Below, in pieces: positions 33,994-57,432 of a stretch of 64,000 nt of DNA (position 1 is its first letter; the number at the start of each line of letters is the position of its first letter). Below the pieces are notes generated by a model that did no database searches, was not told the DNA's origin, and saw only the letters and a list, made by a program, of their open reading frames with translations. A program made the translations under genes and the position numbers. The DNA is from a virus: the IMG/VR virus record IMGVR_UViG_3300003654_000069, positions 1 to 64,000 of that record, one strand, 5' to 3'.

Positions 33994-34005
33994 ATTGATT
34001 AAGTA

Positions 34006-37000: not shown

Positions 37001-37332
37001 TCTTGTCCTTGCCCCTGTTCTTGCTGTACTTGTCCTGTTTCCTGATATTTTGGCATTCCTCCATAAGCAAAGCTACCACCCTGATAAGGAGCTGGAACAT
37101 TTTGATAAGCCGGAGAAAAGAATCCTCTTTCTGATTGAATCTGAGGATACATCTTTGGTGTTCCACCCATAGCCATTATATAATCTTGTTCTGTACCATA
37201 CTTGGCATAAAACTGTTGTTCAGTCCCACCAAATTTAGCGAGAATGAGTTCTTTTTGTGATTGGGGTTTTCTTTTAGGCATAATTTTAGGTATAATATTT
37301 TGTAAAGTTACGAATTTAATTGATCTAACCAA
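34006..37332 (-). CDS. 1108-aa low-complexity (Q/P/G/N-rich) internal or ejection-type protein
   Basis: Long ORF. The start may instead be the MPKRKP Met at 37281, which would remove the 25-nt overlap with the upstream gene. It contains (QGQP)4 and several GG...LPK[YHA]Q motifs. Confidence 0.85.
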   Translation of the reverse strand: MVRSIKFVTLQNIIPKIMPKRKPQSQKELILAKFGGTEQQFYAKYGTEQDYIMAMGGTPKMYPQIQSERGFFSPAYQNVPAPYQGGSFAYGGMPKYQETGQVQQEQGQGQEQQMQQVMKQVQQMLKQPNAQPQDVIMQLLQSEMPPEIILQIFVQLGMPQEQVEPMIEEVMAQAQGQPQGQPQGQPQGQPQEQGSFRNGGMPRHMLPKHQIQSIVGPQGAPDAVMNPETGISEFPPGFIPGQSGLSPTMDMYKKQMKDMLHQDYINSIINKSQRDSINNITPPFKIDPNTGKQFSNGGFPTFSAYPQQPTMSEISNFGGSPGPQYFGMGGSYDEIMKLHGMHMDYPKTATKKSQTRLIKLLKKHELEMNPEREGKLKRGGAPCFGCGGTKYGAGGTNDESISELSKSRGDNFLALLDEGSELAQYNNMINPPTEDTTYQDMGNEGIGQDMGQNMAIAQGRNGGWIPRANFGYTNQPGFSQQSKDMLDMYGQNMADINQKANIRNPFTKLFARGYDKKMGDYLNTQARFGYSLPKAQDSKTMIPQGPVVKDAAFYKKYWDDQNTPRTPLTNEQWAQWDKWSKGDFSGSTNQRHQGNYNQGFFNPVSGGWSNWYPSTSQPYIRKQNIYIGGKQQGVGNPFSGWTGNRNQFRDMTPVQRLAAMQKTNPYLTSYKTTKRRIGRGIKSEEATFAYPWQTGSPTTASNTVTPNAAAVNAGTPNTGTPNTGTTASTNTNPLLNRATTADEANQWLTDMQQNAGQSGWKNTGVPEAPVVVPKEDELLNPGITVEAWDNMSPDQQETWKHGFPGKGDPGPFDTPVVSEAPNTYNPSTDAGYDATAIRTQAAENARIAANTRNPDGYTTIDGNAPISQEGEVDPENFEYDTARNAHLKANPGDIEGAQAAGTAAYNATQAKLYDAEGNFIGQPVENMLTGDPATENLQRFTGQPVQEDYFGKPEYPFGQPPLPPGEKEVKMAEFMQNPYARPISAADKHWRENPELYKASPPTSPKEIKYMEKEEKRLGLTPGTLTGKTSRSFSWKPHEPQGTPDADAQYYDESETSYDPYSEGNYAHGGSYGKRRRPLPKYKKGQVIYLEGGEIERILAAGGKVEYV
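36761..36808 (-). repeat. perfect 12-nt x 4 tandem repeat (TGTGGTTGTCCT on the plus strand) encoding (QGQP)4
   Basis: Read directly from the sequence. The repeat is in frame, so copy-number slippage would preserve the reading frame. Confidence 0.95.
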
Positions 37333-45000: not shown

Positions 45001-47158
45001 ATATTACAAAAGTAAAATCAGTTATTAGTTTATGTTTAGGATGCTCTGGTTGTTCATCAAAACTACCCTCAACCTTACCAGACAACTCACCATAAAGTTT
45101 AAGTTCTCTTGAGGATAAATATGGATTATTGAATGAAGTATCAGGTGAATGGAATGAAAACTGATTTTTTGATAATCCACCACTAGGATTCTGAGTAGTT
45201 GGATCATCAAAAGCATTTGATAATGTAGCACCTCCGGAAGTTTCTTCTTCAGAAAGAAAAGGATCTCCCAGAGTAGCATAGGGACCAATATCTACCTGTG
45301 GATTATAAGGATAATTCTGGAATAATACTGTGGGACCACTATCAAGTGTAGTAACCCTCATGTTATTAATGATACCTTTAGCAATAACTGTTTTATTTCC
45401 TTCTCTTGAACCTCTGAGGATCTCAAATCCAGCTATACCTGGAATTAAATTACCTGCATTATCTACAGGAGGACGCACATTCTCAAATTTTACTCCGAGA
45501 AGAATTATTTTACCTAAAGCTGCATCATAATGAGTAATTGTTCTATTCTCTGGAAACTTATGGTGTCTTATCTGGTCACCACATGTATCATATTGTGGTA
45601 TGGTAGTTCCTGAAAGAGGTGGAACAGATAATTGATATGGCTGAGAACCAGGAGCTATGGCTGTCCAAGGATTAATGCTAGGATTAAACATCTCAGCTTT
45701 ATCATCGGGATACTTCTCTGTAGATTCCCAATAACCCATATATCCATCAGCTATTTCAACACCACCATCAGGAAGTGTTATCTGATTAATAGGTAATATG
45801 GGAACTATAGTAGCAGTATTAATTGTCTGCCAAGTCTGAGTTTCAGTAATATCAAGTACACTACCTGCTGGTGGAGCTGCTGTATCAGAAGGAATAAAAG
45901 GTCTTCCTGGAATATGATACGAAGCAGACTTATCTCCAGTGGTATATATAAATCTTACAAAAAATGGATATACCTCATCTCTCATATAACTGGTCTTGTT
46001 ACCACCCTTAGCATAGAAATCAGCAGGATAGGCTATAGCAGACCATTTAGTTACTATTTGATTAGCAAGAGGTTGATAATTGAAATCAAACTTACTAGTC
46101 GGACCAAGTCGGACCAAATGAGGTCCGATAGTATGCATACTCTCAGACCTTTCATATGTTGGTGAAATAAACGGGATATCCTCAACTGGTATAGAAGGTA
46201 AGGCCTCATTGATGTAATCGATAAAGATCTGTGCTTGTCTTACACTATAATTACCGATTCTCTTTGCGGAAGTCTGTTGATTAATAGTCCTTACAATAAC
46301 AAGATCAAAATAATCGAAATATTTCTTGTCAATCTCTTTAATAGTCAGGATAAGCGAACCAGCAACATTGAGATGTTCAAAGATAGGTTGTATATCAGAA
46401 GGAAGAAAGTAATCTGTAACTCTCTCGCCATTAAGAGTATATGCAATAATTGCATAATAAGAACCGTTTAGAACAGTACCTCCATTAGTTCCTCGGGTTA
46501 ACTCCAAACATGGAGTTTTCATAAGTGATTGAAGTCTTATAAGATCACAATCAAGTTGAAGAGGTATATTATTGGTACAGGTAACACAACCTACAGAAAT
46601 ATAATTAGGTGGTCCAGGAAGGACTACTAGATTCTCATCAACACATGTTTGCATATAGGGCACACCAGGCCACGGCTGCGAGTAAGGTGCTGTTGAAATA
46701 TTACCAATATTGAGTACTCTGGATGGATTTAGCCCATCATCCCAGTATACATGCCAAGTACAGTCATAACTCTCCTTAGATTGCCCTGTAATAAGATTAT
46801 GAGTATTGAAAGCCAGACAGGTATCCCTAACAATTTGGGTATATTTACATAACCCCTCATCAAAAAAACCTATTTCAGAATTAGTATTATCAGTTGAGAA
46901 AATAACCCATCGATCATCTAGAAGATGAACTACACCTATAATTATATACGGTACATCTAATGGATTCAGGCTATTAGGAATACATATCTTAGTAGAAGGT
47001 TCATTACCAACAGTACCGGTATGCCCATCCTTAGAGTTATTAATACCATTTCTTAGGTGATACCATGCACCTTCTGGTTGAAATGTTCCATCAGCATCCT
47101 TCACCATCCCTTTCAGGAAAGTATTTGACTTATCCGGACTATTCTGGTCTTCTGCCAT
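42044..47158 (-). CDS. 1704-aa large virion structural protein (tail hub, nozzle or stabilisation-type candidate)
   Basis: Long ORF with beta-rich, Trp/Tyr/Asn/Gly-rich composition. It sits between small structural genes and the ejection proteins. I recognised no catalytic motif. Confidence 0.5.
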   Translation of the reverse strand: MAEDQNSPDKSNTFLKGMVKDADGTFQPEGAWYHLRNGINNSKDGHTGTVGNEPSTKICIPNSLNPLDVPYIIIGVVHLLDDRWVIFSTDNTNSEIGFFDEGLCKYTQIVRDTCLAFNTHNLITGQSKESYDCTWHVYWDDGLNPSRVLNIGNISTAPYSQPWPGVPYMQTCVDENLVVLPGPPNYISVGCVTCTNNIPLQLDCDLIRLQSLMKTPCLELTRGTNGGTVLNGSYYAIIAYTLNGERVTDYFLPSDIQPIFEHLNVAGSLILTIKEIDKKYFDYFDLVIVRTINQQTSAKRIGNYSVRQAQIFIDYINEALPSIPVEDIPFISPTYERSESMHTIGPHLVRLGPTSKFDFNYQPLANQIVTKWSAIAYPADFYAKGGNKTSYMRDEVYPFFVRFIYTTGDKSASYHIPGRPFIPSDTAAPPAGSVLDITETQTWQTINTATIVPILPINQITLPDGGVEIADGYMGYWESTEKYPDDKAEMFNPSINPWTAIAPGSQPYQLSVPPLSGTTIPQYDTCGDQIRHHKFPENRTITHYDAALGKIILLGVKFENVRPPVDNAGNLIPGIAGFEILRGSREGNKTVIAKGIINNMRVTTLDSGPTVLFQNYPYNPQVDIGPYATLGDPFLSEEETSGGATLSNAFDDPTTQNPSGGLSKNQFSFHSPDTSFNNPYLSSRELKLYGELSGKVEGSFDEQPEHPKHKLITDFTFVISALLGIGNAIMAIKGQRRTSYISPYVSNIGMILTGPGSSGFAPSPAGSGAAGAAALITYRNTFDQEEVEPTGGATLLSLVASLFGDEPLLVTTYKNAAVVALSTPGVSGGQENIETDQSDFGYLPKFMKTTNSLVMFSNYWSKSTEAVMELIKALIPFTQYAMRYTSHGFMDNYAIGNVNAGNFRHIIADAIYVDDQFQDFNVNPLAQTKINNLYRSKTVVLQTLASNIPRPLTIDNSVQTIGSCVRGDLGLPVGTLVSFKPDDAKEEFNTTACSQYAAMKKRMRNQYGQLEGIVQIPASTCPVYTTGLAAPYSTAIVFNGDTYVCRYTEKNTFFYFWDWLYDQPDGYEWNYKLRYMLNFPRYWADFTDYDINEFITGGTIDLTAPPFVSIPLPNDRARLDGANLNQGSIGSPGLFRMKNRYFYTFNSAVRDFYVESVINTELRDWGDPMEQRYYDPNRFSDVRTLFDPKIIKSGNFVKYDTSLSISRVFNNFFPWGSLQKREYNPTIAETCFVFYPNKLIYSLPQTLESVKDFWRVFLVNNDKDFKHHLISIKPLGMTGAVLLFDTASPQIFQGVDELKTDAGVKITVGDGALFDREPQNIINADSSYEYGSCQDSLGVINTPSGLFWMSANQGKIFNYAGGLREISNLGMKWWMTRYLPFKILEDFPDFSLTNNPVAGVGCQSIFDNKNGIVYFTKKDFKRKPGLIGAQVILDSTYEGFVHATLGFPITLGDPQYFDDASWTLSYDIKSKDGQWLGFHDWHPDLSIPSKNDFLTTVHTPANQGQIWRHGVLTNSYCNYYGIDYPFEIDYIASTGQQVTTVRSIEYLLECYIYDEIGTDAFHVLDANFDHAVVYNSEQVSGILILNVVPKNDIVQTLQYPIVNATSIDILAAKVEQKYRINQFWDITEDRGEFTFPTVQRKIWQTESNGYIRILNPANLFYGKSPLQRKKFRHYTNHVMFYKNISGNIKMYVKLINTKELISVR

Positions 47159-47161: not shown

Positions 47162-48103
47162 TTATACTGCATTGTTAACATTACCCTGAAGCTGACCATC
47201 ATATGATTTGAACATATCATAGTACTTACTATACATGGCCTTTCTATTTGCTACCCATAGTTTCTGCATTTCACTGAAGTTAGGGGTATTAACAATATTT
47301 AGAGCATAGTTTCTGGCAACTCTAAGTCTCTGATCAATAATTTGCATCTGAGCTATAAGGTTCTCTCCACCAAGGATAAGATTCTCAATTATTCTTTGCT
47401 TTACTGCATATTCATAATATTCATTAATCTCAGGATGATCAACAACAAGTAAATTTCCATCAGGATCAACAAGTTGTCCCTGGTAATTGATATACATCTT
47501 ACCATGTGTGAAATTAGTGAAGACAAATCCATCTCTGATATAGGCTTCATTCGTATGTCCGTGATGTTTTCCCCAGTTTAATCCCAAGTTTGGACACTCA
47601 CAATTAATAAATTTTGAATTCTTGAATACTACCTGATGAGAAAAATCATAATGTCGAGTATAGGTATTTACCTTCTGAATAATCTTATATTCTGCTCCAC
47701 ACTCGGTAAGACAGACTGAAGGAACACACTGAAAAGCAGGAGCACATGGATCTGTGGAATTCGGAAATGTCTTATATGTTGGAAATAAAGGAGTATTTAC
47801 AGATACCTCTTCAATATGGGTACCCTGAGGTGGTATGATAATCTCTGTAAAGCTCCCACACATAAGAGCAAAGTTCATTACAAAGAAGTCATCTGGAAGC
47901 TTTGCTTTATTATGCTCAATTTCAATAATTGTTTCTTTAGTCATCTGAACCCTAAGACCCAAATCATAATTGACACGAAGTGCAACCTTTGCAAGCTCTG
48001 CAGGTGTAATCTTTCCAGAAACATCAAGTGTTTTAAGATCCATACTTGCATCAGCAAGCAGCTGTTCCAATGTTCTGTATTTAAGAGTATAATTATAATT
48101 CAT
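47162..48103 (-). CDS. 313-aa hypothetical structural protein
   Basis: ORF in the operon. Its start overlaps the upstream stop as TAATG. Confidence 0.75.
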   Translation of the reverse strand: MNYNYTLKYRTLEQLLADASMDLKTLDVSGKITPAELAKVALRVNYDLGLRVQMTKETIIEIEHNKAKLPDDFFVMNFALMCGSFTEIIIPPQGTHIEEVSVNTPLFPTYKTFPNSTDPCAPAFQCVPSVCLTECGAEYKIIQKVNTYTRHYDFSHQVVFKNSKFINCECPNLGLNWGKHHGHTNEAYIRDGFVFTNFTHGKMYINYQGQLVDPDGNLLVVDHPEINEYYEYAVKQRIIENLILGGENLIAQMQIIDQRLRVARNYALNIVNTPNFSEMQKLWVANRKAMYSKYYDMFKSYDGQLQGNVNNAV

Positions 48104-48765
48104 TACCTAAGAATATTAATTTTATCATGAGCTGCTGGATCTGCAGGTATCTGTATTTGAGTCATCATTTCTTTAAGAGTAAATTGTTCTACCTCAGCAA
48201 AGATATCTTCTGGAATAGGAGCAGCTGTATCCTGATTAATCATACATTTATCAGCTTCACATAAAAATGATGATATATCACCTGACCAGACTCCTTCAAT
48301 ATTTACAGATGACCAGATGATATTAGGAAAGTAAAGAAAATCATTCAGATAATAGTAATATTTAGTTTTATCATATTTAGCTCCCGATGTTTTACTAAAA
48401 TGAATATAGGTAGCTAACTCTGTAGGATAGACTCTACTACTACCATCTACAGCAGTTATTGCTCCTAGAAGAACACCACTTGTACTATCAAGTAAAGATG
48501 GTAATTTCTCTTTTGTTCTCATTATAGTACAACCAGACTGAATATCACAGCATGCTTCTACCTTGTCAACTTCTATAAGAGCAACACAAGGAAGTGTCCG
48601 ATAAGCACTATTTGCTGAATTAGGACTTGCCTTAATATTACGACTTATAATAAAAGCTGCATATTTTAGAATAACACTATAAATGTTCCTATCTGTAAGG
48701 AAAGGATCAATTTTTACAGCTTTTAGGGCATTTCTTACCCGAGAGATTGTTTCTGCTATTATCAT
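48103..48765 (-). CDS. 220-aa hypothetical structural protein
   Basis: ORF in the operon, with an ATGA overlap to the upstream gene. Confidence 0.75.
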   Translation of the reverse strand: MIIAETISRVRNALKAVKIDPFLTDRNIYSVILKYAAFIISRNIKASPNSANSAYRTLPCVALIEVDKVEACCDIQSGCTIMRTKEKLPSLLDSTSGVLLGAITAVDGSSRVYPTELATYIHFSKTSGAKYDKTKYYYYLNDFLYFPNIIWSSVNIEGVWSGDISSFLCEADKCMINQDTAAPIPEDIFAEVEQFTLKEMMTQIQIPADPAAHDKINILR

Positions 48766-49352
48766 GACATGTCGAATTCGTTATAAAAATCCATTGCAAA
48801 TGCATTACTTATATTCTTATTATCTTGTCGTACAGTTTTCTTAGCAAGATTGGCAATACTAGTAAAGTTTGATATAACTCTATAAAGCTTCCAGTTACTT
48901 GGATAGGTCTTGGCTACTGTTCTCTTAAAAGTCCGGAATGGTCGAAATGCCCAGATATCACGATCCTTTAGTGAATGACCAGAAGTATTATTAGTATAGA
49001 ATATTTTGGCCATATGTCCATCTGTTTCCCAATTCTTATTCTCTATCTGTCTACCACACTCAATTGACTTTTTATAATCAATCGATTTTCTCTTTCTTTT
49101 ATTACAAGATCCTATGAATACGGTACCAAGATTCTCAGGAAGACATACCCCATCTCTATGCTCAATAACAGTACTCCAGATTCTACCTGTATGATTATAA
49201 ACTATTTCATGAATAAGATCATCTTTTACAGTAGCATATTGAGGAAATTTCTTTCTGAATTTATCACAGAATTCCCTATCAATTACTTCTTTCCAGGGTT
49301 TTCTATACCTTGGACCTTTAACATTCGGTTTTCTAAATGTCACACCTATCAT
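48762..49352 (-). CDS. 196-aa basic hypothetical protein
   Basis: First ORF after the 142-nt gap. The product is Lys/Arg-rich (RKPNVKGPRYRKPWK, CNKRKRKS). Confidence 0.7.
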   Translation of the reverse strand: MIGVTFRKPNVKGPRYRKPWKEVIDREFCDKFRKKFPQYATVKDDLIHEIVYNHTGRIWSTVIEHRDGVCLPENLGTVFIGSCNKRKRKSIDYKKSIECGRQIENKNWETDGHMAKIFYTNNTSGHSLKDRDIWAFRPFRTFKRTVAKTYPSNWKLYRVISNFTSIANLAKKTVRQDNKNISNAFAMDFYNEFDMS

Positions 49353-49494: not shown

Positions 49495-50034
49495 TTAAGG
49501 TTTTGTATTAATTCTTAATGTTACAGAATAACAATTTCCAGAAGCACAAAAGGTATTCACTCTTATCAAATAAGTATTAGCAGATAAAAGATTTACAATA
49601 ACTGCAGTATTTGGACCTAAAGGTGACTGAGGTGGTAAAAGAGTCCAAGGGGCTACAGTAAGCAGCTTATACTCTACCTGATAACTTGTAGCTGTAGGAG
49701 ATGATACCCAGGCTATAGCAATACTATTACTAGTAATTTGATAAGGATAAACATAAGGAGAAGATTGACAAGCTGATGCAGGATTAATGCATCCCGGATT
49801 AGTTAACCATATGCTAATCATCTGCATGATTTGAGCTACAGAAGCTCCCTCTGGAAAGTTTGTATCTACAATACTATAATCATTTTGATAGACACATGCC
49901 TGATCTATGAATTCCACACATGTCTGAGGAACCGGACAATTAGGATCAGGTAGACAGGCGCAAGAAGGGACTGTTGTAAAAGGTCCATCTTTACAACCAC
50001 AACCTGGACCAGAACCGCATTTTTTACAAGCCAT
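49495..50034 (-). CDS. 179-aa cysteine-rich fibre or receptor-binding-type protein with a C-terminal FN3-like domain
   Basis: 13 Cys in 179 aa, with N-terminus MACKKCGSGPGCGCKDG. The FN3-like part is listed as a separate feature. Confidence 0.7.
   Translation of the reverse strand: MACKKCGSGPGCGCKDGPFTTVPSCACLPDPNCPVPQTCVEFIDQACVYQNDYSIVDTNFPEGASVAQIMQMISIWLTNPGCINPASACQSSPYVYPYQITSNSIAIAWVSSPTATSYQVEYKLLTVAPWTLLPPQSPLGPNTAVIVNLLSANTYLIRVNTFCASGNCYSVTLRINTKP
49507..49761 (-). other. fibronectin type III-like domain
   Basis: SIAIAWVSSPTATSYQVEYKLL...W...NTAVIVNLLSANTYLIRVNTFC fits the W / Y-x-V-x-Y / L-x-x-x-T-x-Y-x-x-R-V pattern of FN3. Confidence 0.55.
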
Positions 50035-50035
50035 T

Positions 50036-51568
50036 TTATATAGTATTAATTGTAGTTATGAAAGCTTGAGGACAGACAACAGGTGAACCAGAATTTACCT
50101 GAACTGTTATTAAAATATAATAAGTAGTTCCCGGTGTCAATGCTATAAATGTTCCTGATACCGTTGCTGCAAGAGCAGGATTTATTGTAGTTTGACTACT
50201 AATCAGAACATTATCAAGACCATAAATCTCTACTGTATAAGTAACCGGCCCGGTAACAGTATTAACAAAACTGTAATCTATAGTAGTATCAGTAGGAGTA
50301 AGAATAATAGTTTCCTGAGGGCATGGTACAGTGTTAATAATACTATATGTTAAAATCCTTTCACATTGTAATCCACCACAATCAGCACCTGGTGAAGATC
50401 TTACCCAACATCCCTGTATTGAAATTATAAGGTTTGTAGCTACATTAATAGGTGAACCAGAAAGATTTACAACAAAACTTCCGTTTAGATTAGTTATCAC
50501 AGAAACATTTGTTATAAAAATATTACCAGCACCATCAGTTATAGTAACCTGATTACCACTTGGAGAACAATCTACCATTCCTGCAGGAACAGAACCTGTA
50601 AAGTAGAGAGTCAAATTAGTTCCTGTTAATGAAGCTGTAAGATTAATATTTACATCATCACAATCTGTGCAACAACAAGTTTTAAGAATATTAAGAACTG
50701 CAGCTCTCATATCACATATAGCAATCCATTGATTATTAATAGAATCTGCTAGAGTTGAATATTGAGAAGATACTGCCCATCCTGGAAGAGTACCCATTGT
50801 GGTATTCAAATTAGCTAAAGAAGGAGAGATATCAAGATTAGAACACTGTTTCTGAATAGCCAAAAGTATTTCTATAGGAGAACCTGTAACTGATTCAAGT
50901 GTACAAAATTGTGTTTCCAAATTCTGAACTACAGTCTGAATAGGAAAACCACCAGGTGGTGGTGGTCCAAGAAGACAGCTAGATGGAATAAGTATTTCAC
51001 AAGATGGTTCATTTTCAAGAACGGTTACTCTTGCATCAATATTTGATACATTAATATTAGTATTATTAAGACCAGCTGCTATAGTTGCAACCTCTCCAAT
51101 CAAAAGGCAAAGTCTATTACCTATAGCCTGAGCATAGTCAGCCACGGTCATAGTGGTAACCCAGTCTCCAATTGGATTAAGATATCGGAAACAATCAGCT
51201 ATTGGTACATCCTGACCACCCATTCGAGCAGAACCATCCTCAGGACAACACTCTTTACATGTAGGAGGACAACCAGGTTCAAATACACAATTTTCTATTG
51301 CACAGATTCTACCTATTAGAAACTGAATAAGATCATGAAAGTTCTTTGGAGTAGGACAAATAGGGTTAAAACAAGTTAAATCGTAGGTCTTTATGTCTAA
51401 CTGATTAAGAATATCACATAATTCAGTAGCTAGTTTAGCAACTACATCTGATATAGAGTCTCCATGACATAGATTAATGCAAGGAATATCTGGTCCTTGC
51501 CAAATTACACAGTTAGAACTTACAGGATTGCAACCTTGTCCGGAAGTAATATTTGTTGGTAATGCCAT
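50036..51568 (-). CDS. 510-aa cysteine-rich fibre or receptor-binding-type protein
   Basis: 30 Cys in 510 aa, including CCC and CKECC clusters. The C-terminal ~90 aa are FN3/Ig-like (TYTVEIYG...LTPGTTYYILITVQV). Confidence 0.7.
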   Translation of the reverse strand: MALPTNITSGQGCNPVSSNCVIWQGPDIPCINLCHGDSISDVVAKLATELCDILNQLDIKTYDLTCFNPICPTPKNFHDLIQFLIGRICAIENCVFEPGCPPTCKECCPEDGSARMGGQDVPIADCFRYLNPIGDWVTTMTVADYAQAIGNRLCLLIGEVATIAAGLNNTNINVSNIDARVTVLENEPSCEILIPSSCLLGPPPPGGFPIQTVVQNLETQFCTLESVTGSPIEILLAIQKQCSNLDISPSLANLNTTMGTLPGWAVSSQYSTLADSINNQWIAICDMRAAVLNILKTCCCTDCDDVNINLTASLTGTNLTLYFTGSVPAGMVDCSPSGNQVTITDGAGNIFITNVSVITNLNGSFVVNLSGSPINVATNLIISIQGCWVRSSPGADCGGLQCERILTYSIINTVPCPQETIILTPTDTTIDYSFVNTVTGPVTYTVEIYGLDNVLISSQTTINPALAATVSGTFIALTPGTTYYILITVQVNSGSPVVCPQAFITTINTI

Positions 51569-51592
51569 TTGTTATAATTTACTAAATTTTAT

Positions 51593-52126
51593 TTAACCTA
51601 TTATTACTACACGATAAGTTCCAGGTATTGTAGGGTATATACTTAATTGATCTGCCGTCATATCATATATTATACTACAAGTAGATGTAACTTTAACCCA
51701 TTCATTGGTAGTAATATCCAACCACCAAACAGTTATAGCAAAATCAATTACATAAGGTGTATTAATAGAAGAATCAACAATACAAGTTTCTACTAAAGGA
51801 CCACAGGTAGATACATCAGTACCAGTGATTGTTATTGGTATTATTGTCTGGTTTCCTTCTGGATCAGGTATTGATAAAACAACCTCAAATGTTTTAGCAT
51901 ATTTAATTAAGGTAGGAGGACATATACAAATACCAGTTGGACCAGTTGGCCCGATTGCACCTGTGGCTCCGTCAGTTCCATTTGTTCCTGCTAAACCTGT
52001 TGCACCTGTGGGACCAATAGGACCGGTTAATCCAATAGGACCTTCTGGACCCATAGGAGCAGGATATTGATAGCATACCTGACTTGGGCAACAACAGGGA
52101 TTTGAATTACAATTATGACAACTCAT
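51593..52126 (-). CDS. 177-aa collagen-like fibre protein with Cys clusters flanking the triple-helix segment
   Basis: [13 protein letters not shown], then 14 G-X-Y triplets, then GICICPP, then a globular C-terminal domain. Confidence 0.8.
51926..52051 (-). repeat. collagen G-X-Y triplet repeat (14 triplets)
   Basis: [40 protein letters not shown]. Confidence 0.9.
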
Positions 52127-52130
52127 TTTA

Positions 52131-52643
52131 TTATAAATTTACTATATGATACAAAATATAAATTTTTATTGTGCCGTCTCCTGTTAAAGAATCTGAACCA
52201 ATTTGAATTAGCAATGGCTCGTTTTCAATTATGTTTAATCCGCCTGTATTTATAAAAGAAGAATTTTTGCGAGTTGCATTACAAACAAAACCAGCATAAT
52301 ATTGCATTTGCATTGTCCCCGAAGGATTTTTTAAATTAATAATACTACTCGTAAACCCCACACTTACAAATGTTTCTGCTATGTTTGCCTCAATAACTAC
52401 TATCGCTTTGCCTGCTCCTGGCGATGGTATCGCTTCAATAGGAATTGAATTTCCTGTTTTGATTTGGTCTGCCATGAGGGAAACAGTAATGCTTTCAAGA
52501 GTAGTACCTGGACCAGCAGGACCCATTGGACCTATTGAACCTAGGATACCTTGAGCACCAGGAGGTCCCATTAGTCCTGGTGGACCTACAATTTGTATTG
52601 TTGATTGGCAACAACAATTATTATTTCCACAATTACAACTCAT
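52131..52643 (-). CDS. 170-aa collagen-like fibre protein (paralogue)
   Basis: [12 protein letters not shown], then about 8-9 G-X-Y triplets ([27 protein letters not shown]), then a globular C-terminal domain. Confidence 0.8.
52506..52586 (-). repeat. collagen G-X-Y triplet repeat (~9 triplets)
   Basis: Read from the translation of the 170-aa ORF. Confidence 0.85.
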
Positions 52644-53154
52644 AATGATTAACTATATTATATCCGGTTGTTTGATTAGATACTAATGTTATACCTCCAA
52701 AAGTTCCTACTTCTGCAAAAAGAGATAAAGTAGCATTTACAGTATCTATAGTATCAAGATTGTCCGGATCAATACTAATATCGAAAGTTCCACTTGTTCC
52801 AAAAGCATCTTTTATAACCAGAGTATTTCTTTGAGCAAAAATATTACTTGCAGGAAGTAATTGAACTACTACAGATCCTAAACTAGTATCTATTAAAAGT
52901 ACATCTTCATCTCCGACAACTGTATATGTCGTTGCTGGACCTATATCTGGACCTGAAGGTTGACCTATAATATTAACAACCATTATAGGAGGACAAGGAC
53001 ATTCACCTTCAGGACCAATAGGACCTTCTGGACCTATTGGACCTGGATTACCCTGTATACCAGCAGGACCTTGAGGACCCATAGGACCTGGTAACTGATA
53101 CGGAATACTCGGAGTACAATTACAAGGATTCGGATTACAATTATGGCAGCTCAT
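52633..53154 (-). CDS. 173-aa collagen-like fibre protein (paralogue)
   Basis: MSCHNCNPNPCNC, then 10 G-X-Y triplets, then GECPCPP, then a globular C-terminal domain. It overlaps the next gene by 11 nt. Confidence 0.8.
   Translation of the reverse strand: MSCHNCNPNPCNCTPSIPYQLPGPMGPQGPAGIQGNPGPIGPEGPIGPEGECPCPPIMVVNIIGQPSGPDIGPATTYTVVGDEDVLLIDTSLGSVVVQLLPASNIFAQRNTLVIKDAFGTSGTFDISIDPDNLDTIDTVNATLSLFAEVGTFGGITLVSNQTTGYNIVNHYEL
52999..53088 (-). repeat. collagen G-X-Y triplet repeat (10 triplets)
   Basis: GPMGPQGPAGIQGNPGPIGPEGPIGPEGEC. Confidence 0.9.
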
Positions 53155-53192
53155 ACTATAATATAAGGTTTTTTACTGATTAATCAAAGAGG

Positions 53193-54077
53193 TTAACAAA
53201 TTAGTTTTGAAAAATCTGACAATTCTTTCTGAATCCAGATTTTATTAAGATTTTTAGGACAACAAGATTCTATTCCATATTGTTTATACTTAAACATCTC
53301 ATAGGTCATATTTGCAAAGACTTTGTTTGCTTGAATATCACATTCTTTTTCACAAATCCTATAGGTATGCTTATCTATCTCAGGAATACTTGGTTGAAAA
53401 GGAGGTTCCGGTTCTGGAGGTACTGGAGGAAGACAGCATTCACAATCAGGAAAACACTCTATAGTTCCAGTAATAGGAACTTCAACACATGGTTCATGTT
53501 CAAGTCTTTCTGGAACTTCTATTCCAGTAGGAATAGGATCGTCTATTATACAACAGTCTGTAACTTCTACAATATAACATATACAAACTCTTGGAAATTC
53601 TGTTCCTGGTCCACCGGTACATATCCTTATTACTTGTCCTACATATTCAGATAAATCGGTATTTGTTATTATAATAGGAGTTAGACCAGTACAATCAGTA
53701 AGCTTATAACAATCACACTTACAACCCGAAGGACCCCACTCAACTATAATTGATACGCTAATACCACCAACTGTAAATATAACATTTGGTGGATCAATTT
53801 CTACAAAAGGACAAGTTGTGGTTAATGTAATTGTAAAATAACACCAATCACCAATAAGACCACTAGCTACGATAGATATATTAGTTATAGGTAATACTGG
53901 CGGTAAAATAGCAGTTGCAAGAAGAGCATTTATCTCTACTAAGGTTGTTATACCTGGGTCATAATCAACAGTAAAAGGACTTGTATAACCAACAATTTCT
54001 ATTGTATTATTACCTTCTAGAAGACCAATCCGAAAGGATCCTCTATAATAACAACTATTTAGTAAGTGCGATGACAT
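53193..54077 (-). CDS. 294-aa cysteine-rich hypothetical virion protein (start moved to the internal Met)
   Basis: The ORF track starts at 54119 and overlaps the upstream 62-aa gene. The ATG at 54075-54077 (MSSHLLNS) lies 1 nt after that gene's TAA. The product has CxC, CC and CxxC clusters and a Pro-rich stretch (LPPVPPEPEPPFQPS). Confidence 0.65.
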   Translation of the reverse strand: MSSHLLNSCYYRGSFRIGLLEGNNTIEIVGYTSPFTVDYDPGITTLVEINALLATAILPPVLPITNISIVASGLIGDWCYFTITLTTTCPFVEIDPPNVIFTVGGISVSIIVEWGPSGCKCDCYKLTDCTGLTPIIITNTDLSEYVGQVIRICTGGPGTEFPRVCICYIVEVTDCCIIDDPIPTGIEVPERLEHEPCVEVPITGTIECFPDCECCLPPVPPEPEPPFQPSIPEIDKHTYRICEKECDIQANKVFANMTYEMFKYKQYGIESCCPKNLNKIWIQKELSDFSKLIC

Positions 54078-54078
54078 T

Positions 54079-54267
54079 TTATGTATGAGGTGTAAAAGGA
54101 CCTCTAGGAGGTGAAACATATCCTGGTATAGGAGATCCGGATCTTTTAGTAGCGTTATAAGTAGCTACACATTTTGTACAACACATCTTTCCATCAGATG
54201 CTGTAGTTAATTTTGCTCCCGCACATCCTACACAGGATATTCCGCAGTTTGGACATGATTGTGCCAT
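54079..54267 (-). CDS. 62-aa Cys-rich, zinc-ribbon-like small protein
   Basis: CPNC-x4-CVGC ... CCTKC. It is preceded by an AAACCAA-repeat leader. Confidence 0.5.
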   Translation of the reverse strand: MAQSCPNCGISCVGCAGAKLTTASDGKMCCTKCVATYNATKRSGSPIPGYVSPPRGPFTPHT

Positions 54268-54297
54268 AATATTGGTTTATTGGTTTATGTTGGTTTA

Positions 54298-54411
54298 TTA
54301 AGGACTTACTTCTACTATTGTAAGAATATATCCAAAGTATCCGGCAATAGCAATTACTACTGCAATGATTAATACTTTGTACTTTTTCAAAAATGCTTTT
54401 ATTTGTGACAT
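54298..54411 (-). CDS. 37-aa single-pass membrane mini-protein; not in the ORF track because it is under 60 aa
   Basis: My own translation is MSQIKAFLKKYKVLIIAVVIAIAGYFGYILTIVEVSP*. It has a basic N-terminus and a 20-residue hydrophobic core. It nearly fills the otherwise unexplained 172-nt gap (54268-54439) between two genes. Confidence 0.4.
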   Translation of the reverse strand: MSQIKAFLKKYKVLIIAVVIAIAGYFGYILTIVEVSP

Positions 54412-54439
54412 TGTATTGGGTTTTAAGGGGTTAATATTT

Positions 54440-54997
54440 TTAGCAGTCCGGACATCCGCAACCACAAGATAGTTTTTTTAGTTTACCTACTACATAATTA
54501 TACATTTCCATTCCTTTTTTAGGATGATGACAGTACTCTACATTAGCTTTAGCTCCTTTTAGAAGCATCCACAGTTCCTGAAGTTCCCGAATCTGAGACT
54601 TTGTAGGCTCAATAGGTTCACAAGCTGCCAGATCTAAACAACAAAGTAACTTATTTATTTGATTGAGAGCACATGTAATCCGAAGATGGTTATACTCTAC
54701 ATAGACCTGATCGTTAGGAGAAAGGCTGTATCTGATCACATATACCCCATCAGGAAGAGGATTAAACTGAACTCCACAGTTATATATCTGAATTCCGAGC
54801 TCACAGGCATTTAGATTTACCGAAAATCCGGTTTGGATATTAGTTACCACAGAAGGTAACTGAAATCCAGGAAGAGTAACTTCAAGTTTAGGACATTCTT
54901 TAGGAACATCCTCACTATATAAACTAGAATCACATACTTTAAAAGTTACCTCCGATAAGGTATCCGGAATATCAAGAGCAAGAAGATGTTTTGCCAT
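54440..54997 (-). CDS. 185-aa cysteine-rich hypothetical virion protein
   Basis: ORF ending in KKLSCGCGCPDC, with scattered Cys pairs (LLCCLDLAAC). Confidence 0.7.
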   Translation of the reverse strand: MAKHLLALDIPDTLSEVTFKVCDSSLYSEDVPKECPKLEVTLPGFQLPSVVTNIQTGFSVNLNACELGIQIYNCGVQFNPLPDGVYVIRYSLSPNDQVYVEYNHLRITCALNQINKLLCCLDLAACEPIEPTKSQIRELQELWMLLKGAKANVEYCHHPKKGMEMYNYVVGKLKKLSCGCGCPDC

Positions 54998-55012
54998 GTA
55001 GGTTCTTTTAAG

Positions 55013-55046
55013 TAAAAAAGGGGATGAGGTTTTTCCTCACCCCCCT
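55013..55046 (-). terminator. strong rho-independent terminator after the 523-aa gene
   Basis: The minus-strand RNA reads GGGGGUGAGG AAAAA CCUCAUCCCC UUUUUU. This is a 10-bp stem with one G-U pair, a 5-nt loop and a U6 tract, 22 nt after the stop. Confidence 0.8.
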
Positions 55047-55068
55047 TTATTACTGATTTTTATATCAA

Positions 55069-56640
55069 TTACGCAGTAACGGTGATTTGCAGTGCAAAAC
55101 AACCAGTCAGTGCTCCAAATTGGTCAGTAACAGTTACTGTGACATTGGCAGTACCTATATTAGCCAGAATAACAGTACCAGAAATTATTCCAGTATTGGC
55201 ATTAAGAGTTAATCCTGTAAGTAATGTTCCAGTCATAGTAAATCCACCAGTTGCAGGAGGTGTAACTCCAGCAGGTACAGTTACCTGGTAACTATATGCA
55301 ACAGCAGCAACACCTTGTGGGGCTACTGCAGGAATTGCACAACATGGATCTATACAATTTAGGAATTCCATTCCAGAACATGGTCCACATGATGCAGTCC
55401 AGTTAGCTAAGAATGTTTGTAAATTTGTATCAATACCATTTGTGATGATTTCAAGCATGTACTGATCATTATCAAACACTCCACTAGGATTGTTGAAACG
55501 AGGTACATTATGTAACAGATGATATACAGTATAGAAAGAATTTCTATTAATCGCACTAGTTACATCATAACCCTGAGTAATCTCACGGATTCTAAGGTCA
55601 CTACCAGTATAGAAAGGAGTTTGCATGTATGATTCAGAAAGAATCACATCACGAAGGATTGTTTCACCAAAACCCATTCCCTGACGAGGACAGCAGATTG
55701 TTTTTACACAAATTCCGGTAAATGCACATACATCACCTGTATAATCTTCCATTTCTATATAGAGTTTTACAGGCTCTTTTTCAAAGAAGTCAGAAGGATA
55801 GAAAGTGCAGTCTCCGAACTTAGTATCAATATATCCTCCGGCAATGGTCATACCAGCACCAGGAGTAGTAGCGCTACATGCAACTACAGCTACAGGTACA
55901 TAAGCAGCCCATGCGGTAGTATCATTTACACCACCAACAGCTACACCTGATTGGTTATATACAATAACCTGAAGGAATGGAGCTGTGATTGGATTTGTTA
56001 CAAATTCAGTTGCCCATGCAATATATACTGATGTAGGATCTACTGGAAGAGGTAGTAATGCAGTAGGATCACAGCATCCAGTCCACTTTGCAGTAGTTCT
56101 ATATGCATTATGATGCAAATAACGAAGAGCGGGTGATCCCTTGATATCAATTCTTAAGCTGTAACTTTCGTTGCAGAGGAATTGAAAACAGCATCCTTCA
56201 GAACCAGATACAGTAAACGGAGTATTTCCGATACCAAGAACTGATTGATTAGGAAGACATGGGGTCACACGGTACATCCTACTAATGTACTTAGGATTGA
56301 TCATTTTCGATTTAGTTGATTCCTGGTATCCACCAGCAAAAGGACCAATCTTGTCATTCTGGTATAAGGCTGAAGAAGCCAAAACCAGAGGACAGCAAAC
56401 ATAGCCGCCACTAGAAAGATTGGAATTGTTGACATTTGTCTGACCATCAGGAGTGAAGAATCCAAAGGATCCTAATCCGAGGCCAGTTGCTGCTGTTGGT
56501 CCGGGGTTAATCAGACTTGCAGTTGTGTAAGAGTTTGCACCAAAGATGAAACCACTTACATTCTGTGATTGAGCAGCATTTGCTGTCTGCTTTTTCGTTC
56601 CCAGAAAAGATTTGTTAAAGGCATGATTAAAGTAAGCCAT
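55069..56640 (-). CDS. 523-aa abundant-looking Cys-rich virion surface protein with a C-terminal Ig-like domain (alternative capsid or decoration candidate)
   Basis: It has its own upstream gap and A-rich leader and its own strong terminator. 20 Cys. The C-terminal Ig-like repeat is listed as a separate feature. Confidence 0.6.
   Translation of the reverse strand: MAYFNHAFNKSFLGTKKQTANAAQSQNVSGFIFGANSYTTASLINPGPTAATGLGLGSFGFFTPDGQTNVNNSNLSSGGYVCCPLVLASSALYQNDKIGPFAGGYQESTKSKMINPKYISRMYRVTPCLPNQSVLGIGNTPFTVSGSEGCCFQFLCNESYSLRIDIKGSPALRYLHHNAYRTTAKWTGCCDPTALLPLPVDPTSVYIAWATEFVTNPITAPFLQVIVYNQSGVAVGGVNDTTAWAAYVPVAVVACSATTPGAGMTIAGGYIDTKFGDCTFYPSDFFEKEPVKLYIEMEDYTGDVCAFTGICVKTICCPRQGMGFGETILRDVILSESYMQTPFYTGSDLRIREITQGYDVTSAINRNSFYTVYHLLHNVPRFNNPSGVFDNDQYMLEIITNGIDTNLQTFLANWTASCGPCSGMEFLNCIDPCCAIPAVAPQGVAAVAYSYQVTVPAGVTPPATGGFTMTGTLLTGLTLNANTGIISGTVILANIGTANVTVTVTDQFGALTGCFALQITVTA
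55072..55332 (-). other. Ig-like ('putative Ig'/He_PIG-type) domain
   Basis: YSYQVTVPAGVTPPATGGFTMTGTLLTGLTLNANTGIISGTVILANIGTANVTVTVTDQFG matches the Y-x-Y...LP-x-GL-x-L-x-x-x-TG-x-ISGT...V-x-V-x-D pattern. Confidence 0.6.
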
Positions 56641-56730: not shown

Positions 56731-57432
56731 TTAATTTGATCTTTCTGCTAATTGGGTTCCTCGACTGAACTGACTACCTGATTCTATGTCTCCTGCCAGG
56801 ATAGATACTGCCTCATCAATTATTAATTCAGTAATATCATCCTTAAATTCAGATTCTACATCAACTGTTGACATAATGTTGGTATAAGGATCTACACAAT
56901 TAGCAACTTGAATTCTGATAGGTTGTCTATAATAGGTTAAAATAGCAGAAGGGATTGTAAATTCACCATTTGTATAAATTCTTGCTTTTTCACCTATGAA
57001 GGTCATAAAGGTTTCTCCCCAGTCAAAACTAGGTTTTTTGTTTACATCTCTTAATAAGACAGCAACATTGGCCTCCTCAGTCTGGTAGACTACCATTCTT
57101 CGATCTGGACAACAATCAGTGGATGCATATGCATCTAATCTTTTAAATTCGAAATAATCTGCCGGTATGACAGCTGTTTCATAATAAACTGGAAAGGGGG
57201 ATAATAGAGGTGTAACTTCCTTAAGTAGTTGTTCCAGATCATCAATTCTCCTTTTGGATTGTTCATCTCCCTGTTTCAGAATATTTGTTCCTGCAAGCTG
57301 TCTTCGACACCATGCTACCTGACTCTTATTAAATGCTTCAACAATCTGCCAACATTCTATATTATCAAAATCCTGAGAATCAAGTTTGTTGATCCGCTGT
57401 TTTACTTTTATTTGAAGTGTTGAATTAAGCAT
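56731..57432 (-). CDS. 233-aa hypothetical protein (head-tail joining position)
   Basis: ORF in the operon. I recognised no motif. Confidence 0.7.
   Translation of the reverse strand: MLNSTLQIKVKQRINKLDSQDFDNIECWQIVEAFNKSQVAWCRRQLAGTNILKQGDEQSKRRIDDLEQLLKEVTPLLSPFPVYYETAVIPADYFEFKRLDAYASTDCCPDRRMVVYQTEEANVAVLLRDVNKKPSFDWGETFMTFIGEKARIYTNGEFTIPSAILTYYRQPIRIQVANCVDPYTNIMSTVDVESEFKDDITELIIDEAVSILAGDIESGSQFSRGTQLAERSN

Follow-up and report, generated by a model that had tools for sequence, protein, structure and literature searches.

Nine consecutive minus-strand genes at positions 49495–56640 of the window (the whole 64,000-nucleotide stretch of DNA that was analysed) encode proteins with 128 Cys in 2,273 aa (5.63%), against 57 Cys in 18,431 aa (0.31%) in the remainder of the window (Fisher odds ratio 19, p 3e-79). 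From its Pfam and hhalign context, the source is a distant crass-like phage, related to the crAssphages of the gut; it is apparently aquatic and, like the rest of its clade, uncultured. Our reading, to which we give a probability of about 60%, is that this region encodes its tail collar and fibre (adsorption) apparatus, that most of the conserved Cys belong to a disulfide network in which the terminal Cys clusters act as docking pegs, and that the rest of the virion has been purged of Cys. The conserved Cys, at approximately 5–7% of the collar and fibre proteins, most likely lock these proteins together by disulfide bonds.

Gene context and cysteine content of the module

The nine ORFs, all present in the interval, and their neighbours are as follows, all on the minus strand:

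56731..57432, minus strand: 233-aa protein, possibly Ring 3/4-like, directly upstream of the module (5 Cys, conserved)
55069..56640, minus strand: 523-aa Cys-rich protein, 20 Cys, first gene of the module
54440..54997, minus strand: 185-aa Cys-rich protein, 13 Cys (AlphaFold2 pLDDT 91.4, pTM 0.85)
54079..54267, minus strand: 62-aa mini-protein, 7 Cys (CPNC...CVGC...CCTKC)
53193..54077, minus strand: 294-aa Cys-rich protein, 22 Cys (7.5%)
52633..53154, minus strand: 173-aa collagen-like short fibre, 6 Cys (Collagen E 4e-4; tail-fibre PHROGs; paralogue alignment)
52131..52643, minus strand: 170-aa collagen-like short fibre, 6 Cys (paralogue alignment)
51593..52126, minus strand: 177-aa collagen-like short fibre, 11 Cys (Collagen score 28.1 bits, cut-off 27.2)
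50036..51568, minus strand: 510-aa Cys-rich protein, 30 Cys (AlphaFold2 model, Foldseek FN3 matches)
49495..50034, minus strand: 179-aa Cys-rich protein, 13 Cys
48762..49352, minus strand: 196-aa protein, possibly IHF/HU-like and crAss001 gp42-like (hhalign to gp42 65.9%)
48103..48765, minus strand: tail Ring 2 protein, 220 aa (PF25702; hhalign to crAss001 gp40 96.6%)
47162..48103, minus strand: tail Ring 1 protein, 313 aa (PF24228; hhalign to crAss001 gp43 91.7%)
42044..47158, minus strand: muzzle protein, 1704 aa (PF25731)
1017..42044, minus strand: seven giant proteins 3' of the muzzle gene (2078, 4038, 2534, 957, 1356, 1108 and 1578 aa)

The module is flanked by Crass_capsid on one side and by CrAss_Ring_2, CrAss_Ring_1, and crAss_MUZ on the other. 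In crAss001, the disulfide-linked collar of the tail hub is encoded at this same position, between the capsid genes and the Ring 2, Ring 1, and muzzle genes. Full-length homologues at 33–60% identity occur in hundreds to thousands of metagenomic contigs, which indicates that the nine genes are real. A further ORF of 55 aa within the interval (54298–54465) has no Cys and is absent from the JGI gene calls. The length of the 294-aa protein follows the JGI call, with its start at 54077, whereas the longest-ORF rule gives 308 aa. The 233-aa protein matches phrog_29507 (E 7e-14) and, by blastp, gp64 of phage phi17:2 (E 5e-16), and thus resembles a protein annotated as a virion structural protein; its hhalign score to crAss001 R3 was only 16.8%.

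The Cys counts given in a preliminary description of this DNA for the 179-, 510-, 177-, and 523-aa proteins and for the 957-aa giant protein (2 Cys) were exact, and the enrichment that it reported is real. The G+C content stays level through the module, so the enrichment is not a composition artefact. Per-gene Cys frequencies computed for the window and the relatives gave a median of 120 Cys (4.8%) for the module in 53 relatives, with totals of 68–251 per module and module proteins of up to 1,344 aa with 103 Cys; the MCP and scaffold proteins of these relatives contain 0% Cys. The edges of the enrichment are not sharp, as a diluted Cys excess runs on past the module into the 233-aa protein (2.1%), Ring 2 (2.7%), Ring 1 (2.2%), and residues 1–217 of the muzzle protein (4.1%), an N-terminal end that holds 9 of the 19 muzzle Cys. 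The seven giant proteins have 10 Cys in 13,649 aa (0.073%), compared with 0.98% in the other structural genes (p 6e-19), and the head proteins are likewise almost Cys-free, as they are in crAss001. The virion proteome is bimodal, its proteins being either Cys-rich or Cys-free. The giant proteins are presumed, from their synteny with crAss001 gp45–gp50, to be ejected cargo or virion-RNAP proteins, and they had no family or PDB match confirming a cargo role. No thiol oxidase was found in the ~74 kb examined.

Folds and families of the module proteins

The three collagen-like fibres share an N-terminal Cys cluster and a Gly-X-Y stalk, but not the C-terminal head, which is divergent in each. The stalk comprises ~9 triplets in the 173-aa fibre, whose cluster is MSCHNCNPNPCNC, ~9 in the 170-aa fibre, and ~13 in the 177-aa fibre; a CPC motif in the 173-aa fibre and a CIC motif in the 177-aa fibre directly follow the helix. 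No orthologues of the 177-aa fibre were found in the relatives, which identifies it as a variable insert.

FN3 and Ig-like domains, as noted in the preliminary description, are present in the 510-, 523-, and 185-aa proteins. The 523-aa protein, with at least 3,166 homologues, has a conserved ~430-aa core of unknown fold and ends in an Ig-like domain of the He_PIG family (E 3e-9). This terminal Ig-type domain differs among members of the family (He_PIG, Big_9, or PKD), none of which matches crAss_AuxCP. The 510-aa protein, with at least 1,449 homologues, begins with a Cys-rich segment modelled at low confidence by AlphaFold2, continues with helices that might build a coiled-coil shaft, and ends in two tandem FN3 domains (Foldseek); it is likely a fibre or collar subunit. 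The 294-aa family is longer in the relatives (median 632 aa and 5.4% Cys), and the longest among the aligned homologues has 824 aa with 55 Cys.

In the 185-aa protein, an FN3-like β-sandwich is followed by three helices and a C-terminal CGCGCPDC cluster (ending in LSCGCGCPDC). This protein, whose family comprises 585 clusters at 50% identity, matched R9ZWW9 in BFVD by Foldseek (E 2e-10, TM 0.74–0.79) and gp58 of Cellulophaga phage phi17:2, annotated as a virion structural protein, by hhalign (97.8% probability, E 9e-13); it did not match crAss001 THA. We regard it as a candidate fibre-docking or hub subunit. The 179-aa protein starts with a CKKCGSGPGCGC cluster, and its C-terminal domain is FN3-like on a weak fn3 match. 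The 62-aa mini-protein belongs to a conserved family of 57–75 aa without a match in Pfam or PHROG, and its relatives at the same position share MxCxNCx5CGCQKRxASDGxxVCxxC. Its motifs would suit either a zinc ribbon or a disulfide-knot connector, the ribbon being the closer likeness. That the Cys-rich proteins are virion proteins, as the preliminary description had it, we infer from synteny, the collagen, FN3, and Ig domains, and the phi17:2 homology; they are plausibly tail and fibre components, and may form the host-recognition apparatus that the same description proposed.

Conservation, covariation, and chemistry of the cysteines

Cys are the best-conserved residues in every Cys-rich orthogroup, their columns scoring 0.59–0.86 compared with 0.21–0.49 for other residues. 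The scores were 0.67 vs 0.36 in the 523-aa protein, 0.59 vs 0.21 in the 294-aa protein, and 0.81 vs 0.28 in the 179-aa protein, whose N-terminal motif is common to 29 orthologues; the Cys columns scored 0.81 in the 233-aa protein, 0.86 in Ring 2 (six conserved Cys), and 0.74 in Ring 1 (7 Cys). In the 510-aa family, no residue class is better conserved than Cys, with 19 of the 30 Cys invariant. The neighbouring 196-aa protein is not Cys-rich and lacks this pattern (0.21 vs 0.35), and it therefore serves as an internal negative control. These results indicate that the module Cys are functional.

Several Cys pairs that lie far apart appear and disappear strictly as a unit, in 5–8 independent events. 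C100/C104 of the 510-aa protein changed jointly in 8 events with none of 186 sequences discordant, and C128/C429 of the 523-aa protein, which lie 301 residues apart, in 6 events with none of 165 discordant. Joint gain and loss was found in 5–7 independent events for C128/C429 and C83/C421 of the 523-aa protein and in 4–5 events for C416/C499 of the 510-aa protein; C120/C180 of the 185-aa protein also covary. The Cys were replaced mostly by real substitutions rather than gaps, and only 1 of ~31,000 control non-Cys column pairs was as concordant. Such behaviour is expected of disulfide partners. The Cys count is odd in the majority of homologues (105 of 186, 102 of 174, and 117 of 165), so not all Cys can be paired inside one chain; this fits inter-chain bonds, and also free or metal-bound Cys.

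Among the three chemistries put forward in the preliminary description (zinc sites, disulfide cross-links, and a redox trigger), disulfide cross-linking is the best supported because of the covarying pairs, the scarcity of His (0–5 per protein), the excess of CC and CxC (17 and 12) over CxxC (10), the Cys-free remainder of the virion, and the crAss001 disulfides. If instead most Cys were ligands of structural metal (in zinc knuckles, ribbons, or clusters of the Cys4 type), the metal sites would stabilise trimer axes and small domains already in the reducing cytoplasm, where assembly takes place. The odd Cys counts would suit this alternative, as would the N-terminal CxxC x4–5 CxC motif, which places four Cys within ~12 residues in the manner of a zinc knuckle, and the two CxxC knuckles ~18 residues apart plus CGC in the mini-protein family. 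However, Cys are gained and lost in twos and not in threes or fours, even where the pair lies 300 residues apart; most are scattered singly in folded regions of the 510-, 523-, and 294-aa proteins; and no module protein matches a zinc-binding Pfam family. Metal binding would also leave the exclusion of Cys from other virion proteins unexplained, and the equivalent crAss001 locus shows disulfides, not metal sites. We therefore consider metal ligation by most Cys unlikely; zinc is plausible only for the mini-protein and the small terminal clusters, of which the mini-protein and the clusters with CxxC fit zinc knuckles or ribbons at least as well as disulfides. Iron–sulfur centres have a precedent in the phage lambda tail-tip protein gpL, and dense Cys clusters do occur in tail proteins, but the module has neither CxxCxxCxxxC-type spacing nor an Fe–S family match, most of its Cys are dispersed, and the pairwise covariation favours disulfides, which makes this alternative highly improbable.

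A different possibility accepts the disulfides and gives them mainly a switching role, in which reduction at the host surface or periplasm, or thiol–disulfide exchange upon receptor binding, would trigger ejection by freeing the fibres or opening the muzzle. Treatment of cyanophage Pam3 with DTT releases its fibres and makes the tail contract, for which a redox-dependent mechanism has been proposed (PMC9942802), and reducing conditions destabilise the Q-beta capsid (cited in PMC13576161). Ring 1 and Ring 2 also hold conserved Cys, as does the muzzle protein at its N-terminal end. By analogy, a redox trigger is possible, but sequence alone does not distinguish a switch from plain stabilisation, the Cys totals in the relatives look like bulk reinforcement rather than a discrete sensor, and the searches turned up no thioredoxin-like motif or domain with a redox-active CxxC; we thus regard this role as doubtful.

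If most of the conserved Cys form disulfides, as we prefer, a dense network of bonds within and between subunits would arise once the proteins exit the reducing cytoplasm, or in late assembly, and would covalently staple fibres, docking subunits, rings, and the muzzle barrel into one cross-linked assembly. The clusters at the protein ends would serve either as pegs for covalent docking or as knots that hold trimers. Those at N-termini (CxxC x4–5 CxC or CCC) are seen in all three collagen-like fibres as well as in the 179-aa protein and the mini-protein, and those at C-termini in the 185- and 294-aa proteins; the N-terminal motif was found in 60 of 435 module ORFs compared with 1 of 576 others, and C-terminal clusters in 36 of 435 compared with none of 576. 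A shared terminal anchor would let interchangeable fibre heads use one docking site. The capsid, scaffold, and portal proteins, like the giants encoded 3' of the muzzle gene, would need to stay free or unfold at ejection, and would have been purged of Cys such that stray cross-links cannot trap them. Observed directly are the enrichment, the conservation of the Cys, their pairwise covariation, the gene context, and the folds; the disulfide chemistry, the docking role, and the explanation of the purge are our inference from these.

Comparison with known systems

The short fibres find parallels in the cystine knot of collagen type III and in the A, B, and C chains of C1q. Shared features are Cys directly at the end of the Gly-X-Y helix (GICICPP and GECPCPP here), with N-terminal Cys before the helix, and tandem paralogous short collagen-like chains with globular heads, of which there are three here. 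The CxC after the helix in two fibres would work like the collagen knot, although it is CxC rather than CC, and the phage proteins are ~175 aa with stalks of ~13, 9, and 9 triplets. The general concept of Cys exclusion from exported proteins, in bacteria lacking disulfide machinery, involves a similarly bimodal pattern, in which the Cys of oxidation-exposed proteins are either paired or lost; here it extends to a virion proteome, with the most extreme purge in the presumed ejected cargo proteins. Among cultured phages, phi17:2 gp58 and phi4:1 gp56 are true homologues of the 185-aa protein, annotated as virion structural proteins and located among genes annotated as structural, upstream of tail-spike pectate lyases. 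They keep a Cys at the extreme C-terminus, but gp58 has 3 Cys (1.75%) compared with 13 (7%) in the 185-aa protein, and the cultured phage lacks the 510-, 523-, 294-, and 179-aa families.

In the Pam3 baseplate, trimeric fibres are tied covalently by N-proximal Cys to the Cys-rich wedge regions of docking proteins in a reduction-sensitive manner (PMC9942802); Pam3 is, however, a myovirus whose proteins are unrelated, and it has only a handful of disulfides rather than 5–7% Cys over a whole module. The closest likeness is to crAss001, also a crass-type phage, whose THA (gp38) and THB (gp39) genes lie with those for R2 (gp40) and R1 (gp43), and whose hub shows hub–hub, hub–ring, and R1–R2 disulfides by cryo-EM (Bayfield et al. 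2023, PMC10172136). The locus directly upstream of Ring 2, Ring 1, and muzzle shows the same contrast in both phages: crAss001 THA has 5.1% Cys and a Cys-cluster C-terminus, whereas its cargo proteins have 0–0.24% (0.04% in gp47). The module proteins have no homology to crAss001 THA, THB, or AUX detectable by Pfam, hhalign, or Foldseek, so the link to the crAss001 collar is positional only. Disulfides between hub, ring, and fibre-docking subunits are visible by cryo-EM in crAss001. That phage inhabits the anaerobic gut, whereas host and habitat here appear aquatic and largely oxic.

The suggestion that such enrichment is unusual for phage particles was therefore overstated, since disulfide-stapled tails are documented in crAss001, Pam3, Milano, and a siphovirus tube protein, and the novelty that it implied is reduced by the crAss001 contrast. 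The module is an extreme form of a feature known from crAss001 and a few other phages, and it goes further than the one small Cys-rich protein of crAss001 in that nine consecutive proteins, fibres included, share the 128 Cys.

Cysteine content and conservation of the module

Nine adjacent minus-strand genes encode exceptionally cysteine-rich proteins (hereafter the module), which are referred to by length, as are their neighbours. ORF calling recovered all nine genes where a preliminary description had placed them, and the Cys counts given there were exact. The features discussed here, by window position, are as follows.

446-706, plus strand: small ORF matching DUF7417
1017-42044, minus strand: genes for seven giant proteins (957-4038 aa), downstream of the muzzle gene
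7250-19366, minus strand: gene for the 4038-aa giant protein
42044-47158: gene for the 1704-aa muzzle protein
49495-56640, minus strand: module (523, 185, 62, 294, 173, 170, 177, 510, and 179 aa)
51593-53154, minus strand, within the module: three tandem paralogous collagen-like genes (177, 170, and 173 aa)
62238-63962 and beyond 64000: portal ORF, cut at the window end

The module contains 128 Cys in 2,273 aa (5.63%), compared with 0.31% in the remainder of the window (Fisher p 3e-79), and the claimed enrichment held when Cys frequency was computed over relatives as well: the modules of 53 relatives carry a median of 120 Cys (range 68-251; 4.8%), with a largest single-protein load of 103 Cys in 1,344 aa. 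The capsid protein among these relatives shows 82% identity and 0% Cys. G+C is flat across the region, with no shift at the module, and base composition alone predicts ~3% Cys for module and giant genes alike; relative to this, the module has an excess of Cys and the giant genes a strong deficit, and both a composition artefact and a horizontal island are ruled out. The 294-aa protein has this length in the JGI gene call for the identical contig and is 308 aa by the longest-ORF rule. A Cys-free 55-aa ORF within the module interval is absent from the JGI gene calls and is probably not a gene.

We found at least 1,449, 3,166, and 324 homologues of the 510-, 523-, and 185-aa proteins, respectively, which carry no family annotation except Ig-type domains. 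Cys positions are conserved among homologues: in the 510-aa family (43-60% identity), 19 of the 30 Cys are invariant, and Cys is the best-conserved residue class (0.82, with Trp at 0.69). Column conservation was higher at Cys than at other columns in five module proteins, and lower in the adjacent 196-aa IHF-like protein, which is not Cys-rich. These results indicate that the module cysteines are under selection. In the muzzle protein, 9 of the 19 Cys lie within the first 217 residues and most of these are invariant in relatives, so the conserved Cys network seems to reach the N-terminal end of this protein.

Table. Column conservation computed over 80 IMG/VR relatives (33-46% identity).
Protein; Cys columns; other columns
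179 aa; 0.81; 0.28
510 aa; 0.72; 0.33
294 aa; 0.59; 0.21
185 aa; 0.69; 0.49
523 aa; 0.67; 0.36
196 aa (adjacent, not Cys-rich); 0.21; 0.35

Phage lineage, gene order, and protein folds

The major capsid protein belongs to PF23898 (Crass_capsid; precomputed for the identical JGI contig) and matches phrog_11589, major head protein (E 7e-31). By tblastn, it matches the capsid proteins of Lbo-JY46, csAssE-Sib, and cr106_1; the closest is that of Leptolyngbya phage Lbo-JY46 (28.6% identity), and more distant kinship extends to the epsilon-crAss phage csAssE-Sib, the Cellulophaga phages phi4:1 and phi17:2, and gut crAss-like phages. No near relative among GenBank phages was detected by megablast or by tblastn of the 510-aa protein, and a literature search on Lbo-JY46 or on this lineage returned nothing. 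The Lbo-JY46 genes syntenic with the tail module are mildly Cys-rich (up to 5.8%). For the clade itself, IMG/VR includes several contigs of 115-136 kb. JGI labels the source samples SLW02 and SLW30, which we take to be possibly from Subglacial Lake Whillans. Eight MAG bins contain the 510-aa gene; four of them belong to the Bacteroidota, with sample names that point to lakes and estuaries. This weakly suggests an aquatic host from the Bacteroidota, for example a member of the Chitinophagaceae or Flavobacteriales.

Three tail components were found in the conserved crass-type order: Ring 2 (CrAss_Ring_2, 220 aa; PF25702; hhalign probability of 96.6% to gp40 of phage crAss001), Ring 1 (CrAss_Ring_1, 313 aa; PF24228; 91.7% to crAss001 gp43), and the muzzle (crAss_MUZ, 1704 aa; PF25731); all three Pfam assignments were precomputed for the identical JGI contig. 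Together with the capsid assignment, this order shows the Cys-rich module to be bordered on one side by genes close to the capsid and on the other by those for the IHF-like protein, Ring 2, Ring 1, and the muzzle; the same position in crAss001 encodes the auxiliary capsid protein (AUX) and the tail hub proteins THA and THB. The order common to relatives is 523, 185, mini-protein, 294 family, 510, 179, IHF-like, Ring 2, Ring 1, and muzzle. At the far end, the portal ORF yields a 574-aa product, and because the portal of relatives is 911-923 aa, this is the C-terminal part only. The DUF7417 ORF (E 7e-10) marks the switch to an oppositely oriented, non-structural part of the genome.

The position of the module raised the possibility of homology to THA, THB, AUX, or R3/4 of crAss001, which was rejected by Pfam, hhalign, PDB sequence search, and Foldseek against the PDB. 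No module protein matched the THA and THB families (PF25724 and PF25711), which crAss001 gp38 and gp39 match strongly, and hhalign probabilities against THA and THB were below 2%. For the confident 185-aa model, no Foldseek match in the PDB reached E 0.001; the matches were generic FN3 ones, and THA was not among them. Recognisable crAss001 counterparts are thus limited to Ring 1, Ring 2, and the muzzle, with the 233-aa protein upstream of the module weakly R3-like (hhalign 16.8%). The module genes do share with THA a location just upstream of Ring 2, Cys richness, and a terminal Cys cluster, which is C-terminal in both THA and the 185-aa protein; this resemblance is an analogy, not homology.

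The AlphaFold2 model of the 510-aa protein (pLDDT 72.8) has a Cys-rich, low-confidence N-terminus, followed by long helices, possibly a coiled-coil shaft, and, at the C-terminus, two confident FN3 domains, which Foldseek matched to tandem FN3 pairs of fibronectin (E ~1e-7). The 185-aa protein (pLDDT 91.4, pTM 0.85) comprises a beta-sandwich, three helices, and a C-terminal Cys tail, and Foldseek (E 2.3e-10, TM 0.74/0.79) and hhalign (97.8% probability, E 8.8e-13, 162 columns) establish true homology, along the whole protein, to gp58 of Cellulophaga phage phi17:2 (phi17:2 gp58/phi4:1 gp56 family). phi17:2 gp58, with no more than 3 Cys, is an annotated virion structural protein encoded just upstream of the tail-spike genes of that phage. 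Across 585 clusters of this family, the median Cys content drops with divergence from 4.9% to 2.8%, while the extreme C-terminal Cys persists. The folds are ordinary for crass-type tails, and the Cys load is accordingly a clade-specific elaboration. In phi17:2 (27983-28695), two proteins annotated as structural adjoin the gp58 homologue and are modestly Cys-rich: gp57 has 6% Cys in 100 aa, and gp56 has 3.7% Cys in 136 aa; this cultured phage is a possible experimental proxy.

Probable disulfide pairing, possible metal binding, and terminal clusters

Variable Cys in the 510-, 523-, and 185-aa families were gained and lost in twos, including a pair 301 residues apart, and mostly through real substitutions. 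For C416/C499, about half of the joint losses are alignment gaps, and this pair is hence weaker. Only one of ~31,000 non-Cys column pairs used as a control was equally concordant. Such covariation could be a phylogenetic artefact of a single event; this explanation was ruled out for the four or five pairs that changed independently 4-8 times apiece, and accepted for C300/C397, which showed one event only and was left out of the evidence.

Table. Covarying Cys pairs in module protein families.
Protein; pair; independent events; discordant
510 aa; C100/C104; 8; 0/186
523 aa; C128/C429 (301 residues apart); 6; 0/165
523 aa; C83/C421; 5-7; 5/165
510 aa; C416/C499; 4-5; 1/186
185 aa; C120/C180; 4-7; 4/174

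The cysteines could instead bind metal. His is scarce (0-5 per module protein), and CC (17) and CxC (12) motifs prevail over CxxC (10); taken with the paired gain and loss, this favours disulfides for most Cys. Odd Cys totals predominate among homologues, and some Cys must therefore be inter-chain, free, or metal-bound. The best candidate for metal binding within the module is the 62-aa mini-protein, a candidate zinc ribbon judging from its motifs: its family (57-75 aa) conserves CxNC x5 CGC ... CxxC, with two CxxC knuckles present and conserved, and Pfam and PHROG searches gave no match. Disulfide bonding in the mature virion is the probable state of most conserved Cys. Within the window and the 10 kb upstream of the portal in one relative, which cover about half of the genome, we detected no gene for a thiol oxidase, thioredoxin, or DsbA. 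The window and the loci of the 53 relatives contain no phage-borne tRNA-Cys that could meet the Cys demand, nor any tRNA gene at all. In Lbo-JY46, which is the closest relative among cultured phages, two tRNA-Cys genes are part of a tRNA array (locus L001, 2093-2241). Outside the structural module, relatives encode upstream of the terminase a conserved protein of ~108-111 aa with 8 Cys, some of them in CxxC motifs (L104:5103-5429, L154:3571-3906, and L093:4908-5240); it had no Pfam match, and a role in zinc binding or redox chemistry is possible.

The three collagen-like paralogues share an N-terminal MSC(H)NCNxNxC(C)C motif and a Gly-X-Y stalk, and their heads are divergent. The Pfam Collagen score is above the cut-off of 27.2 bits for the 177-aa protein (28.1) and sub-threshold for the 173-aa (20.6) and 170-aa (16.5) proteins, which nevertheless have 9 clear Gly-X-Y triplets each; the proteins also match tail-fibre PHROGs. 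A CxC immediately follows the helix in the 177- and 173-aa proteins (GICICPP and GECPCPP) and is missing from the 170-aa protein. The cystine knot of collagen III has two Cys in each chain, which abut the end of the triple helix and form inter-chain bonds; in sequence, the phage CxC resembles this arrangement, and the three tandem genes recall the three tandem chains of C1q. The collagen-like genes are a variable insert that has no orthologues in relatives, and any collagen-like module ORF occurs in only 4 of 53 relatives.

The N-terminal Cys-cluster motif M x0-4 C x1-2 C x2-6 C x0-1 C was found in 60 of 435 module ORFs versus 1 of 576 other ORFs at the same loci, and C-terminal clusters in 36 of 435 versus 0 of 576. 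The crAss001 fibre protein gp22 enters the disulfide-linked hub by its N-terminus (residues 1-26; PMC10172136), and the fibres of cyanophage Pam3 are bonded via Cys28 to Cys-rich wedge regions and detach in DTT (PMC9942802). By analogy with these phages, we infer that the terminal clusters might act as covalent docking pegs or trimer knots.

Cysteine-poor giant proteins and comparison with known systems

The seven giant proteins contain 10 Cys in 13,649 aa (0.073%), compared with 0.98% in the remaining structural genes (p 6e-19). In statistical terms, this deficit matches the enrichment of the module in significance. Cys is likewise nearly absent from the capsid, scaffold-like, and portal proteins. 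The crAss001 pattern is similar, with 4 Cys in the 5,066 aa of gp45 to gp49, 1 in the 2,341 aa of gp47 alone, and 5.1% Cys in THA; in the literature examined, we found no description of this near-absence in giant or cargo proteins. The giant ORFs sit downstream of the muzzle gene, where crass virion RNA polymerase and cargo genes are expected, and synteny is thus what suggests that they are cargo. None matched crass RNA polymerase or cargo proteins in PHROG, Pfam, or the PDB, and no RNA polymerase signature was detectable by sequence. Only two unrelated small domains were matched, both in the 4038-aa protein: one like histidine phosphatase/phosphoglycerate mutase (residues ~1139-1213; PDB 2a6p, E 5e-4; phrog_12933, E 2e-9) and one like a "putative molybdenum carrier protein" (residues 3651-3811; PDB 3imk, E 6e-8). 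A pattern scan found no IMG/VR relatives of the 2078-aa protein. The authors of the crAss001 structure argue that cargo proteins must partly unfold to pass the tail (PMC10172136). A purge of Cys would avert the trapping of cargo by cross-links in an oxidised virion; the strong purge in presumed ejected proteins, common to the window and crAss001, fits this model of unfolding during ejection.

Combining these observations, we tentatively propose a "pair or purge" reading, to which we give a probability of about 0.3. In a large, globally distributed aquatic crass-like clade, the external adsorption apparatus would be a covalent disulfide mesh into which exchangeable fibres plug via a common N-terminal Cys-cluster peg, and the parts that move or unfold during ejection would be nearly Cys-free. 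If so, a modular covalent docking code would govern fibre exchange and host range, and virion stability and triggering would be redox-dependent beyond any described phage. The analysis as a whole predicts that the named Cys pairs are bonded, that the common N-terminal peg motif docks fibres, and that the mini-protein is a zinc ribbon. To express these receptor-binding proteins recombinantly or to predict their structures, oxidising conditions and a multimer context would be needed.

Crass-like phages are among the most abundant known, and their environmental lineages are uncultured, with tail appendages mostly unannotated. Six large protein families that had neither a family annotation nor a source name gain context here, as they appear to be Cys-stapled collar or fibre components beside Ring 2, Ring 1, and the muzzle. 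The preliminary description overstated how unusual such enrichment is: disulfide-stabilised tails or fibre attachment are documented in crAss001 (PMC10172136) and Pam3 (PMC9942802), and disulfide stabilisation likewise in Milano, Q-beta, and a siphovirus tube protein (PMC13576161), so this kind of system is known. What is new is its scale (nine adjacent proteins with 5-7% Cys, and 68-251 Cys per module), its breadth (metagenomic relatives number in the thousands, none of them cultured), the recurrence of a Cys-cluster motif at protein termini, and the explicit virion-wide bimodality of Cys. On a scale that extends to modules with as many as 251 Cys, the disulfide-linked hub of crAss001 appears to occupy the mild end.
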